Source of the DNA: Octopus sinensis
Taxonomy: Eukaryota
Assembly (NCBI RefSeq): GCF_006345805.1
Contig: NC_042997.1
Location: 124,496,001-124,560,000, forward strand
Direction: 5' to 3'
Length of the DNA stretch: 64,000 nucleotides
Each line of letters begins with the position of its first letter. Positions within the stretch are counted from its first letter, which is position 1. Below, in pieces: positions 2,232 to 58,697 of this stretch. The translations under genes were made by a program, and so were the position numbers. Under the pieces are notes generated by a model, which was not told the origin of the DNA, searched no databases, and saw nothing but the letters and a program-made list of their open reading frames with translations.

Positions 2232-2727
2232 AATGTGAAGTATATTTGCCACTTAAATGTGGCTAACCACTAAGGGTGGATGCTACTGTAGCTTGTAGCC
2301 CCAGAAGAATATCTTCTCCAGCTGGCTATTTACACACTTTCTGTGCTCTATCCGTATTTGCAAAGTGAAGCCATCCTTCCCATCGTCGACCTGACGTGAT
2401 ATGCAGGGACCCGTCGTCAGCGCACGACAATCACCGGTCTTCGAAGGAGTCCCAATGCAAATACATATATCCCATATATGTATTGGGATCCATTTGCATC
2501 GAATACCAGTGATTGTCATGCGCTGATGACGGGTAAATACTCAGAAACCAGGGTCCGTGCGTATCAGGTCAGGTCGACGATGGGAAAGATGGCTTCCCTT
2601 TGCAAATACTGATAGGGCACAGAAAGTGTGTCAGTAGCCAGCTGGAGATATTCTCCTGGGCCTACAAGCTACAGTAGCATCCACCCATAGTGGTTACCCA
2701 CATTTAAGTGGAAAATATACTTCACAT
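2232..2727. mobile_element. Fold-back element with diverged arms carrying a hammerhead
   Basis: atgtgaagtatattt...gggacc pairs with ggtcc...aaatatacttcacat, and complementarity continues towards a centre near 2470. A one-armed relative lies at ~51497-51755. Confidence 0.8.
2519..2559 (+). ncRNA. Type I hammerhead ribozyme motif (weak stem I)
   Basis: tgcg CTGATGA c-gggt-aaat-actc-a GAAAC cagg GTC cgtg. Same family as the motif at 51707-51753. Confidence 0.6.
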
Positions 2728-3368
2728 ATATAAATGTAGGTACACATATCTATGTATGTAGACACATACATAGACAACCATGTCTAAAAATAGACAACTA
2801 TATGTAAAAAATAGACATTCATATGTAAAAACATTTGAACTAGAAACAAAAGATAAAAAAAACAAAAAGCATCCTTAAACAACATGCTAGTATTCAATTC
2901 TGTGTCAGCTGAGTCTATTACAAAAGTACAGCCGTCTTAGTTTAAATGCGTAGCAACAAGCATTGATATATTTGATATATATGTAAAATTGTAACACACA
3001 TGATTAATTATAATATTCTTTCTAAATAATTCTTGAAAGCATTACAGATCTGTTTTCAGCCAATAAGAATACTATCAATTATAGTTGTTAGTCATTTTAG
3101 AAATATAAAGAGACGTAACAGCTGTAGATAGTCAAACCGATGATTTAATGAAGTGCTAACAAAGCTATAATTGGGAAATTATTTTAAAATTATACGTATT
3201 GTACTTTAAAGTGTGAATGTTAATTCTCTCCAATAGATTACACTAAAAGTTTTCAACTATCAGATAATAAGAAAAGTTGTTTCAAAATAACACATCGACA
3301 GGAGAAGGGAAGTATAGCCAAGTCTATATAATTTAAATTATTATATAAGCAAGCAAATGAAACACGTG

Positions 3369-3838
3369 GAGGCACATGGCTAAATGGTCAGAGTAGCGGA
3401 CTCGTGATCAAGGGAGCGCGGGTTCAAATCTCAGACTGCGCGATGTGTTTCTTTATGAGCGAAACACCTAATCTGCACGCGGCTCCGACAGAACGTGGTA
3501 CCTTGGGCAAGTGTTTTCTATAGCCACAGGCCAATCAAAGCTTTGAGAGTGGATCTGGTAGACGTAAAGTGACAGAAGCCCGCCGTATGTGTGTGTGTGT
3601 GTGTGTGTGCGTGTGTGTGTGTGTGTGTGTGTGTCTGTCTGTCTGCTTGACTCCCCGCCCAAACATTGCTTGACAGCAGATGATGATGTATTTACATAGC
3701 CGTAACTTAGCTGTTCAGCAAAAGAGACCGATATAATAAATACTAAGCTCACAAAGAGCAAATCCTCGGGTCGATTTGCTCGACTAAAAGCCGTACTCCA
3801 GCATGGCCACAATCAAATAACTGAAACAAATAAAAGAA
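3369..3838 (+). mobile_element. SINE chimera (family C head plus family A body)
   Basis: tggctaaatgg..ggttcaaatc head followed by the family A body ccttgggcaagtg..ccagcatggcc..ctgaaacaaataaaaga. Confidence 0.65.
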
Positions 3839-4806
3839 TATATATATATGTATATGTATATATATACATATATATATATATATATTATATATATAGTCAC
3901 TGTTTCGCATGCGTAAAGTCTTCAAGAATGTATTTGTATGTTGAGTACTGTGATATGATTTATACTTATGATGTTTAATCTGACGGAAGTAACAATATAT
4001 ATTTGTCTGTTTTAGTCGATTTTGAACCTAATACCATATAACCGATTCACAAATATCCTTTCCTTTGAACCTTTCTGTTTACGATAATTCGGCATTACTT
4101 CAGTGAGAACTGAAACAAATTCAAAAAACAATTTTTGAATCTACATCTAGAATCACAATTCAACGACAAAATGACAGCCTAATCTGTAAGATATAGACAG
4201 ACAAGGCTGTATCGTATCATAACCTACCACATTAGAAATTGAAAGTCATATAGGTTACTGTATTCCTAGACAGTTATAAAACGAAAAAAAAAACAGAAAA
4301 AAAATCCTTGATCACAGCTTGATTTCCTTTGATCTTCGTTCTGCTGATTCAGTGTTGTTCTAACCTAAACAGCAACCGTGACATCAAGGGACAGTATAAC
4401 TGCCCATAACCATAGTGTTTTATATATAAACTTAGGGAGGAATATAGTAAGGACCCACAAAACAATTTTCCATGAAATTTCATATAAGATAAGAGAGATA
4501 TGAATGTTTACGCTAGCATTTCTTTCTAATTTGGTCTCAGTGGAATATAATCCCTGCTGGGTGGATTATATTTTAATGTCTATCATTTCATAATTATTAT
4601 TTATCTATTACATTTTCTTTCCGACTAAAACAAACATAGAATTACAAACATACACATATACATACTGATGCCTAAACACACACACAACACACGCACGCAC
4701 ACGCATATATACATATATATATATATATATATATATATGTAGGTCCCGGGTTGATTCGGGGTAACCACAGTAAATAAGGTACTCAATACATAGCAGAGTA
4801 AAATTA

Positions 4807-4934
4807 ATTTATTATATAGAAGGAGCTTCTACAGGACTAGAACTGTTTCATTCAAGAGAAATCTTCAGGAAGCTGAAGATTTCTCTTGAATGAAACAGTT
4901 CTAGTCCTGTAGAAGCTCCTTCTATATAATAAAT
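4807..4934. repeat. Perfect 62-bp-arm palindrome with 4-nt loop (repeated at 5165-5292 and 6668-6795)
   Basis: Arms 4807-4868 and 4873-4934 are exact reverse complements. The element is bounded by (TA)n, with a one-sided ~70-bp tail (4739-4806). Confidence 0.92.
4824..4874 (-). ncRNA. Type I hammerhead ribozyme motif, copy 1
   Basis: Minus strand agcttc CTGAAGA t-ttc-tctt-gaa-t GAAAC ag-ttctagtc-ct GTA gaagct: 6-bp stem I, stem III acag/ctgt, GUA site. Confidence 0.72.
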
Positions 4935-57900: not shown

Positions 57901-58339
57901 TACATACATACATACATACATACATACATACATACATACATAGAAATCATCTATACGCATTGAACAAAATCACAGATGTGATGAAAAGAAGATTTGTTGG
58001 AAGAAAGAAGGGAAAAAATAGAGGCAAGCAATTACTGCTGAGTTTACAGGCTTTAGTAATAAGTTTCTTTGAAAATACAAATCATAGCAGGGTTGCGTGC
58101 GTGAGTGAGTGTATGTTTATTTATTTGTGACAGAGGTATGCATGTATATGCATATACATACATACACAAATGTACATACATACTTATATATATATATGTT
58201 ATAATTTACGTTATCTAAGAGATACCACTACGCTGGAAATAGCAGTCAAAACTTGACTCTAAAACCACATTAAATGCTCATACAGTACCAGGAGAGAAGA
58301 CAAAGAGACAAAATAAACTAGTAAAAAAATTACTGGATA

Positions 58340-58378
58340 ATTCCAGATCCCGGATTTCTGACTCTGCATCAGTGGAAT
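58340..58378 (-). ncRNA. Degenerate hammerhead motif (stem II damaged)
   Basis: Minus strand attcca CTGATG cagagtca GAAA tccggga TC tggaat: perfect 6-bp stem I. It lies at the end of a copy (58199-58380) of the 18002-18290 family. Confidence 0.45.
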
Positions 58379-58534
58379 ACACTAAGATAGTGCATAAATG
58401 CAAATATATATATATATATATATATATATATATCTATATATATATATATATATACATATATACCGGAGTAAACACATAAATGTGAAACAAGTTAGAAAAA
58501 AGATTACTCAAATACCAGGGGTAGAGTAATATGG

Positions 58535-58697
58535 TTTATTTAAAAGCAGCAGAAATTCAACAAAACCTGTTACTCGGAGTTTCACGTTCCCGTTCGTCGG
58601 ACTGTTTTGCGCGCTTTTTTAACAAAACTGTCCGACGAACGGGAACGTGAAACTCCGAGTAACAGGTTTTGTTGAATTTCTGCTGCTTTTAAATAAA
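58535..58697. mobile_element. Fold-back (~68-bp perfect arms) with hammerheads; tail at ~58463-58534
   Basis: tttatttaaaagcagcagaaattcaac...gttcgtcggac is mirrored exactly; flanked by (TA)n. Confidence 0.88.
58624..58670 (+). ncRNA. Type I hammerhead ribozyme motif (CCGACGA core variant)
   Basis: aaaactgt CCGACGA acg-ggaa-cgt GAAAC tccga GTA acaggtttt. A mirror copy lies on the minus strand in the left arm. Confidence 0.72.

Follow-up and report, generated by a model that had tools for sequence, protein, structure and literature searches.

Hammerhead-bearing retroelements of probable Penelope type in a glutamate receptor locus of Octopus sinensis

We analysed 64,000 nt of the Octopus sinensis genome (NC_042997.1, positions 124,496,001 to 124,560,000; hereafter the window), a (TA)n-rich stretch that holds many fold-back elements with type I hammerhead ribozyme motifs. 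It is very probable that these motifs are the 3'-end hammerheads of Penelope-like elements (PLEs), with three families being truncated, folded-back ends of Hydra-clade PLEs and the others short non-coding RNAs likely copied by the same kind of enzyme. The window thus mixes Hydra-clade stubs, retrozyme-like monomers that are recognised by their anatomy and whose partner and RNA are presumed, and a hammerhead-bearing short interspersed element (SINE), likewise recognised by its anatomy, that may depend on PLEs. The main picture has largely been described before, and the window illustrates it well rather than amounting to a discovery; the SINE is its freshest part. Families carry our working labels (F or E with a number), and L numbers cite genomic loci that we fetched.

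Hammerhead motifs in the window and the genome

A strict type I descriptor (core C[CT]GANGA, stem II of at least 3 bp, GAAAC, a short or paired helix III, UH, and stem I of at least 4 bp) matches the window at ten positions: 2523+, 4868-, 5226-, 6729-, 8440-, 8476+, 25469-, 30771+, 51746- and 58632+. With 100 dinucleotide shuffles, for either of the block sizes used, the same descriptor gave a mean of 0.0 and a maximum of 0 matches, and it found none in the window when this was reversed or complemented, so the motifs stand above a shuffled background, as a preliminary description of this DNA had supposed. The ten matches reduce to seven independent insertions of six families: 4868, 5226 and 6729 are identical copies within a local 99-100% duplication and therefore count as one insertion, 8440 and 8476 are both arms of a single insertion, and 2523 and 51746 belong to one family. 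The tandem duplication itself (3635-6795, 99.9-100% identity), which triplicates the F2 stub, is either very recent or an assembly artefact.

The preliminary description had counted at least eight elements with this layout, all of them fold-backs. Two of the eight fall short in the window: the motif at 13251 satisfies a loose descriptor only and is decayed, and the copy at 20038 fails the descriptor, its stem I having decayed. Relatives of both elsewhere in the genome fold intact. The five stem pairs it quoted (agcttc/gaagct, ccac/gtgg, tccca/tggga, cctgcg/cgtagg and cgcga/tcgcg) are all present as written, and the motifs at 11183, 55913 and 58340 that it called decayed are indeed relics with broken cores or stems. 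Many of the elements are fold-backs, but those at 51746 and 20038 are single arms, and the inverted pieces at 25469 and 30771 are just 30-41 nt long. The family of the 11183 relic (11181-11284, 55848-55949; L043:1236) is present in high copy; its core seems to carry U for A6 family-wide, and its stems are intact in good copies.

An Rfam search, which the preliminary description had proposed as a check, returned no hammerhead family among the 150 strongest of 216 matches listed for the window or among all 110 matches in six genomic loci, and its microRNA-family matches were rejected as simple hairpins and microsatellites. The motifs match type I hammerheads by descriptor yet fall outside the Rfam covariance models. 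We do not count 32 stem-I variants as proof of covariation, because they come from a descriptor that demands pairing. A non-circular sign of pairing constraint comes from the loop that the pattern leaves free, which is a perfect palindrome in about 66 of 100 genome matches listed (9 different palindromes, counted by hand) and a wobble palindrome in 19 more of the same 100, against a chance expectation of about 1 in 16.

Genome-wide, a pattern of the core plus a 4-nt loop has 19489 matches (control 1436) and a loop-less core pattern 21874 (control 2347), so that each narrow pattern yields about 20,000 matches, roughly ten times its control; the two overlap in part and miss several families. With tens of thousands of hammerheads invisible to Rfam, cephalopod ribozyme counts are probably far too low; the giant squid annotation lists 235 hammerheads (PMC6962438). 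The window has 4 and 1 matches to the two patterns where 0.46 and 0.51 are expected per 64 kb, about five times the genome mean, and the density of one element per 5-8 kb given in the preliminary description therefore holds locally and is not a genome rate.

Truncated Hydra-clade ends and a proposed origin of the fold-backs

Judged from their longer copies, F2 (4868), F3 (8440/8476) and F15 (58632) are 5'-truncated 3' ends of autonomous Hydra-clade PLEs, the clade being assigned by motifs. In longer copies of all three, reverse transcriptase (RT) and endonuclease (EN) frames lie 1.2-4.5 kb upstream of the hammerhead, confirming the Penelope-type hammerheads and inverted 5'-truncated copies of the preliminary description, which had proposed a search for contiguous RT and EN open reading frames (ORFs). 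Copies of F2 share 5' extensions of graded length up to the 1.5-kb edge of the fetched sequence; one locus (L188) is a 7.9-kb fold-back with an F2 hammerhead at both ends and a CxCX5C-linker EN frame 3.3 kb upstream, and another (L234) has an open RT-EN frame of 652 amino acids (aa) with DKT, YRDD, CxCX5C, CxxC and CxH. A genome search with the F2 EN frame gave 150 scored matches of 22136 candidates, the best 93-97% identical. The five long F15 copies fetched have 1.5-1.9 kb upstream of the hammerhead in common, and two of them (L181, L182) carry RT-thumb and EN frames 1.2 kb before it; all 30 close copies have the 3' end in common and terminate in TA-rich DNA, and their 5' ends vary. Both long F3 fold-backs fetched contain broken RT and EN frames, 37-43% identical to the F2 protein. 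An exact F3 42-mer occurs 1625 times in the genome (control 0), and F3 inverted pairs are spaced from about 70 bp to 12 kb apart.

The features of the Hydra clade recur in these families. RT followed by a C-terminal EN forms a single frame in F2 (L234), and the broken frames of F3 and F15 keep the same order; the CxCX5C linker, CxxC and CxH motifs, which define the clade (PMC8557442), can be read in all three, and DKT in place of DKG only in F2 (L234). All three have a hammerhead near the 3' end, a (TA)n target, a tail and an inverted truncated copy. Counting the 3' untranslated region (UTR) alone, F2 (3.3 kb) and F3 (3-4.5 kb) already exceed the length typical of the Hydra clade, <3 kb. The putative GIY-YIG identity of the EN is read from its motifs and from an Atlas match of 0.95 to a cluster with PF01541 in 23% of its members; Hydra ENs have been described as a distinct cluster. 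A PDB search with the F2 protein gave no match.

Elements at L019:742-1252, L044:772-1063, L171, L126 and L184 have a 3' end and tail 80-92% like those of F3 and, where a hammerhead is present (L019), a different one; they are either sister subfamilies or products of ribozyme exchange. When the genome was searched for GIY-YIG with Pfam (of 5029 candidates 150 were scored, and 147 of these matched), Neptune-like families with intact frames of 775-781 aa and their own hammerhead variants came to light, but no such family has a 3' end in common with the window's families. One of these, at L041-L051 (for example L041:574-4274 and 4274-5350), is a young Neptune-like family with ORFs of 479 and 781 aa, RT and GIY-YIG by Pfam, a U3-A8 hammerhead variant and a splice-donor-like site in its 3' UTR. 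That UTR also has CCAAT and CRE-like boxes in several repeats, and a TATA-like box.

The preliminary description had treated all families as a radiation of short non-coding ribozyme retroelements moved in trans. Its observation that the window itself holds no PLE ORF stands: ten PLE frames from the genome, run against the window with tblastn, found no match. The idea is true in outline for F1/F12 and E11 and probably for E5, E10 and the SINE, and the 5' ends of short F3 and F15 copies do cluster no more than about 100 nt from the core, so that some of these copies could be secondary masters. The longer copies of F2, F3 and F15, three of the six intact families, nevertheless continue unbroken into RT and EN frames, and the 5' ends of the stub families form a gradient. 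As a statement on all families the in-trans reading is refuted, and we regard it as very unlikely; mobilisation in trans is a conclusion that we reserve for the tandem-monomer and SINE-like families.

The fold-backs range from about 130 bp to 8.6 kb and arise anew at each insertion, as a by-product of it. Nine of ten F3 fold-backs differ in their junction spacers; in the tenth pair a single junction has been read on each of the two strands. In an unselected pattern search exactly one arm was tailed in 8/8 F3 pairs; none of 11 inverted F2 arms was tailed (29 loci, with the query arm chosen with its tail), and in F15 an inverted end that lacks the tail, lying at a variable distance, is present in 20 of 30 copies. 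With their short, perfect inverted arms and TA-rich sites the elements do resemble miniature inverted-repeat transposable elements (MITEs), that is, DNA transposons bounded by terminal inverted repeats, where any likeness to a hammerhead would be incidental, and the window contains one real DNA transposon relic (60879-61467, with 42-nt terminal inverted repeats), which we take to be Tc1/mariner-like with mariner-like coding remnants. A MITE, however, has a fixed size, fixed ends and a constant centre, whereas here junction and size vary per copy, one arm bears an extra tail, many copies lack an inverted arm, and unrelated families combine a common core with different stems. A MITE origin is barely credible on this evidence: junctions that vary and copies that continue into RT frames refute it, in agreement with the preliminary description, which expected such elements to be mislabelled as MITEs.

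From this anatomy and published in vitro work we infer the following mode of insertion. The inverted truncated copy and tail of PLEs have been described (PMC8557442), and according to PMC11167929 a PLE protein cuts and extends both strands in vitro, its RT starts at two sites bounding the tail, and the PLE hammerhead is not needed for insertion. An RT-GIY-YIG protein would nick AT-rich DNA, mostly (TA)n, and reverse transcription would begin inside the RNA, close to its 3' end, at one of two fixed sites, the tail being the stretch between these. One complementary DNA (cDNA) would be primed from each side of the break, each usually stopping early, often just past the hammerhead, and the two would join head to head, giving a fold-back with a tail on one arm. 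For the non-coding families a tandem or circular RNA may serve as template, which would explain copies longer than one unit; for their hammerheads, with a one-pair helix III and a palindromic loop, the prediction is that dimers are cut and monomers released. F2, whose helix III has 4 bp, is predicted to be cut as a monomer. The one-tailed-arm rule, holding over fold-backs from the shortest to the longest, constrains how PLEs can insert.

Because the 3' ends face outward, a transcript entering from either side reaches the antisense arm first. The computed probability of stem I is 0.0 inside F2, F3 and F15 fold-backs, compared with 0.5-0.97 for the motif alone, and stem I pairing is likewise 0.0 inside the E10 element. 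Fold-backs in host pre-mRNA are thus predicted to bury their own ribozyme, which would make intron copies likely inert passengers.

Non-coding monomers and a tRNA-headed element

F1/F12 (2523, 51746) and E11 (30771) are non-coding head-to-tail monomers of retrozyme-like form, and E5 (13251) and E10 (25469) are probably of the same kind. F12 occurs as a natural head-to-tail tandem of 349-nt units (L142, L137) whose longest stop-free frame is 90 codons; 8 of 30 copies exceed one unit, and five of nine inverted arms stop some 45 nt before the main end, all of them at the same tail-less site. The F12 core differs less than the rest of the unit (4/360 versus 323/6772 cells; Fisher p 4e-4, with copies that are not independent), as expected if many copies serve as masters. 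For E11, at least 11 same-strand pairs lie 581-588 nt apart among 100 listed of 183 matches (counted by hand), and a permuted, inverted copy is present in L150. The head-to-tail arrangement of E5 and E10 is seen as partial tandems only, with a 339-nt period for E5 in the one relative read (L255). F1/F12 and E11, and probably E5 and E10, carry tail and inversion marks like those of the PLE stubs.

F12 arms lie head to head and antisense with RT-coding pieces of Neptune-like PLEs at L192:526-1900 and L048:5800-6270, a possible hint of a partner or a chance insertion; as these arms by Neptune-like ORFs (L048, L145/L192) are antisense, they were not taken as a link. Fragmented cDNA from three raw runs and one contig set, under another species label, gave little depth over the F12 ribozyme and no accumulation of read ends where it would be cut, and is no evidence either way; reads on the F12 tandem fall mainly on a motif common to other families. 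Another tandem hammerhead family, whose period is close to 558 nt (G000:C1:257506-258667, 399015-400174 and others), is absent from the window and abundant among the first 100 listed matches of the core plus 4-nt loop pattern.

The motif at 20038 reads as the 3' stub of a tRNA-headed SINE-like element, E7, whose full layout is a tRNA-like head, (AAT)n, a body with a loop-less hammerhead, and an optional 30-35-nt tail. A common 5' start and box-like motifs are found in five loci, with what we take to be the A and B box consensus as the reference. ARAGORN at relaxed score called tRNA-Ser in two of the three heads given to it, Rfam gave no tRNA match in the E7 locus L253, and folding produced no cloverleaf in the head; a tRNA origin of the head is moderately supported. 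Of six independent heads in the fetched loci, five continue into the hammerhead body and the sixth into an F12 copy. Exact head-to-body links number 422 genome-wide (control 0), a 27-mer of the body has 2712 exact occurrences, and one arm alone is tailed in 5/5 fold-backs. The E7 3' end had no match beside any ORF in 0.98 Mb of fetched loci, a sample that lacks most PLE and long interspersed element (LINE) families. The direct fusion of the tRNA-like head to an F12 monomer (L146:1356-1500) is likely a template switch. E7 may be one of the three octopus tRNA-derived SINEs that are reportedly the subject of a 1994 paper by Ohshima and Okada.

We favour, with some reserve, the proposal that these are non-autonomous PLE riders with a PLE insertion signature: an RNA polymerase III tRNA-headed hammerhead SINE moved by a PLE and not a LINE, and retrozyme circles copied from two fixed sites, inverting head to head. 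The same marks on tandem monomers and on the SINE-like element are insertion footprints that support a dependence of retrozymes on PLEs, as recently proposed, and that suggest a partnership between SINEs and PLEs; if the rider proposal is true, they would be direct footprint evidence that PLE enzymes mobilise both. We found no such evidence for SINEs and retrozymes in the literature searched, a search outside which lie preprint supplements that may bear on retrozyme marks, and no SINE with PLE insertion marks in that literature, including the parts consulted of PMC8967140, PMC10886601 and PMC11481361.

Several results weigh against the account given so far. Nine of ten single motifs fold no better than shuffles by minimum-energy folding, and the minimum-energy fold is often not the hammerhead. 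The test for a conserved core does not reach significance in F15 (p 0.72 and 0.28) and is borderline in F2 (p 0.04), and Pfam did not recognise the EN frames of F2 and F15 (0/4 relevant). E5 is known from one relative and E10 from the window alone, and no autonomous partner was found for F1/F12, E5, E10, E11 or the SINE (E7). A single cDNA folding back on itself could give a product similar to that of the two-primer model, which we infer. Burial is not general either: E11 and the single-arm F12 copy have stem I probabilities of 0.99 and 0.37, and the unburied F12 at 51746 lies on the host sense strand.

Host gene and known systems

Two minus-strand exons in the window match Pfam ANF_receptor positions 52-130 and 320-351 (2/92 frames scanned), and the best PDB match of the exon at 49753-49992 is glutamate receptor 2 (E 1e-5; Table 1). 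The elements between 1974 and 49753 are intronic in this AMPA-type glutamate receptor gene. Those at 51746-58632 are probably in an earlier intron of it, no receptor exon upstream of 49753-49992 having been found in the window; the placement in one gene's introns made in the preliminary description is secure to this extent. Could the ribozymes or hairpins be kept for a role in receptor pre-mRNA, through cleavage, splicing or as double-stranded substrates for A-to-I editing? The enrichment of the window for the two patterns, the six motifs on the sense strand of the gene and the long, near-perfect hairpins would favour this. The copies are, however, ordinary members of large young families (91-100% identical to other members), several are decayed, both strands are used, the window was chosen for its richness, and the fold-backs are predicted to bury the ribozyme, so that we hold a host role to be highly improbable. 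Many long intronic hairpins may stem from insertions of the kind preferred here, those of PLEs and their presumed riders.

Table 1. Hammerhead-related elements and host exons in the window
Feature	Positions	Strand	Remarks
Later host gene exon, end of the amino-terminal domain of the AMPA-type glutamate receptor	1879..1974 (bounds approximate)	-	Pfam ANF_receptor
F1/F12 fold-back of 349-nt retrozyme-like family	2199..2727	+	Core 2523+; left arm without stem II region
F2, 3' stub of Hydra-clade PLE	4739..4934	-	Core 4868-; tailed arm to 4739; tail-less inverted arm 4873-4934; (TA)n both sides
F2 stub, identical duplicate	5097..5292	-	Core 5226; part of local duplication
F2 stub, third near-identical duplicate	6599..6795	-	Core 6729
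Fold-back of 3' end of another hammerhead family	8040..8208	.	Truncated before ribozyme; locus L149
F3, head-to-head stub of Hydra-clade PLE	8224..8616	.	Hammerhead per arm (8440-, 8476+); tail 8224-8301 on minus arm only
Relic of minimal-hammerhead family, A6-variant core	11181..11284	+	
E5 fold-back	12965..13433	+	Hammerhead 13251, helix III decayed; apparent permuted monomer of ~339 nt; one relative, L255
Fold-back of 58340-relic family, without ribozyme	17994..18297	.	
E7, putative 3' stub of tRNA-headed SINE-like element	20013..20150	+	Minimal hammerhead, core 20038, no loop 3; head absent in this copy
E10	25255..25591	-	Hammerhead 25469-; 30-nt inverted end; 50-nt direct repeat 230 nt apart (partial tandem)
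E11, non-coding family, head-to-tail period ~586 nt	30529..31060	+	Hammerhead 30771, C4 core variant, long stem II; 41-nt inverted end
Host gene exon, amino-terminal domain of AMPA-type glutamate receptor	49753..49992	-	Pfam ANF_receptor, PDB match
F12, single arm of 349-nt family	51494..51751	-	Hammerhead 51746-
F15, two short fold-back stubs	54635..54973	.	Truncated inside ribozyme
Second relic of 11183 family	55848..55949	-	
Relic hammerhead, stem II shortened	58198..58382	-	Core ~58372; locus L104
F15, head-to-head stub of Hydra-clade PLE	58463..58700	.	Intact hammerhead 58632+; tailed minus arm with one stem I change

Three further features were seen in the window. A LINE RT fragment (24456-25253, minus; Pfam RVT_1, E 2.4e-5, below cut-off) has no relation to the hammerhead elements. 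Two fold-backs that the preliminary description did not name, at 20721-21560 and 23111-23564, are older (arm identity 74% and 81%), the second having a 3' motif in common with the F12 and E5 families.

F2, F3 and F15 resemble the Hydra clade of PLEs with a C-terminal EN (Craig et al. 2021, PMC8557442) in their RT followed by an EN of putative GIY-YIG type, their CxCX5C, CxxC and CxH motifs (with DKT read in F2) and (TA)n targets, and also in the inverted 5'-truncated copy and optional tail; helix III of F15 and F2 is that of published Hydra hammerheads (File S2), and an octopus family, Hydra-1_Obim, is already listed (File S1). Published members are mostly <3 kb, whereas here the stretch from ORF to hammerhead is a repeat-rich 3' UTR of 1.2 kb (F15), 3.3 kb (F2) or 3-4.5 kb (F3); tails are about 65-80 nt here versus 30-40, and the hammerhead sequences differ from the one listed for Hydra-1_oBim.

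Massive numbers of minimal hammerheads, mostly single and sometimes on opposite strands, have been reported from truncated PLEs (Cervera and de la Pena 2014, PMC4209133), with low in vitro activity, only as dimers. The motifs here resemble those metazoan hammerheads in the type I layout, the extra base after A9, and a one-pair helix III with a palindromic loop or none, as well as in their many families per genome and in their arrangement, mostly single with some opposite-strand pairs 100-700 bp apart, read there as truncated PLEs. Octopus was not found in the supplement as far as it is searchable, which excludes one file. Counts here are about 20,000 per narrow pattern versus 2,000-9,000, and G10.1-C11.1 is often replaced by a mismatch or U-A, unlike in the hammerheads of that study.

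With animal retrozymes that lack long terminal repeats (Cervera and de la Pena 2020, PMC7229834; Li, Clavereau and Pollet 2026, 10.64898/2026.07.22.740005) the tandem families share non-coding head-to-tail monomers with one type I hammerhead each, and the 349 nt of F12 match the size range of mussel retrozymes, 350-390 bp. The 586 nt of E11 are longer than the 170-400 nt reported, and most copies here, known from the genome alone, differ in that they are scattered, incomplete monomers bearing the tail and inversion marks of PLEs. In the 2026 preprint retrozymes are derived from PLEs by co-occurrence and phylogeny; in its main text 'tail' occurs 0 times and 'inverted' only in a reference. For E7 the closest likeness is to the tRNA-related SINEs with hammerheads known from schistosomes (PMC2770079), which are likewise high-copy short elements that combine a tRNA-related head with a hammerhead; E7 differs from them in its loop-less minimal hammerhead, (AAT)n spacer, dispersed rather than tandem copies, PLE tail and head-to-head inversion.

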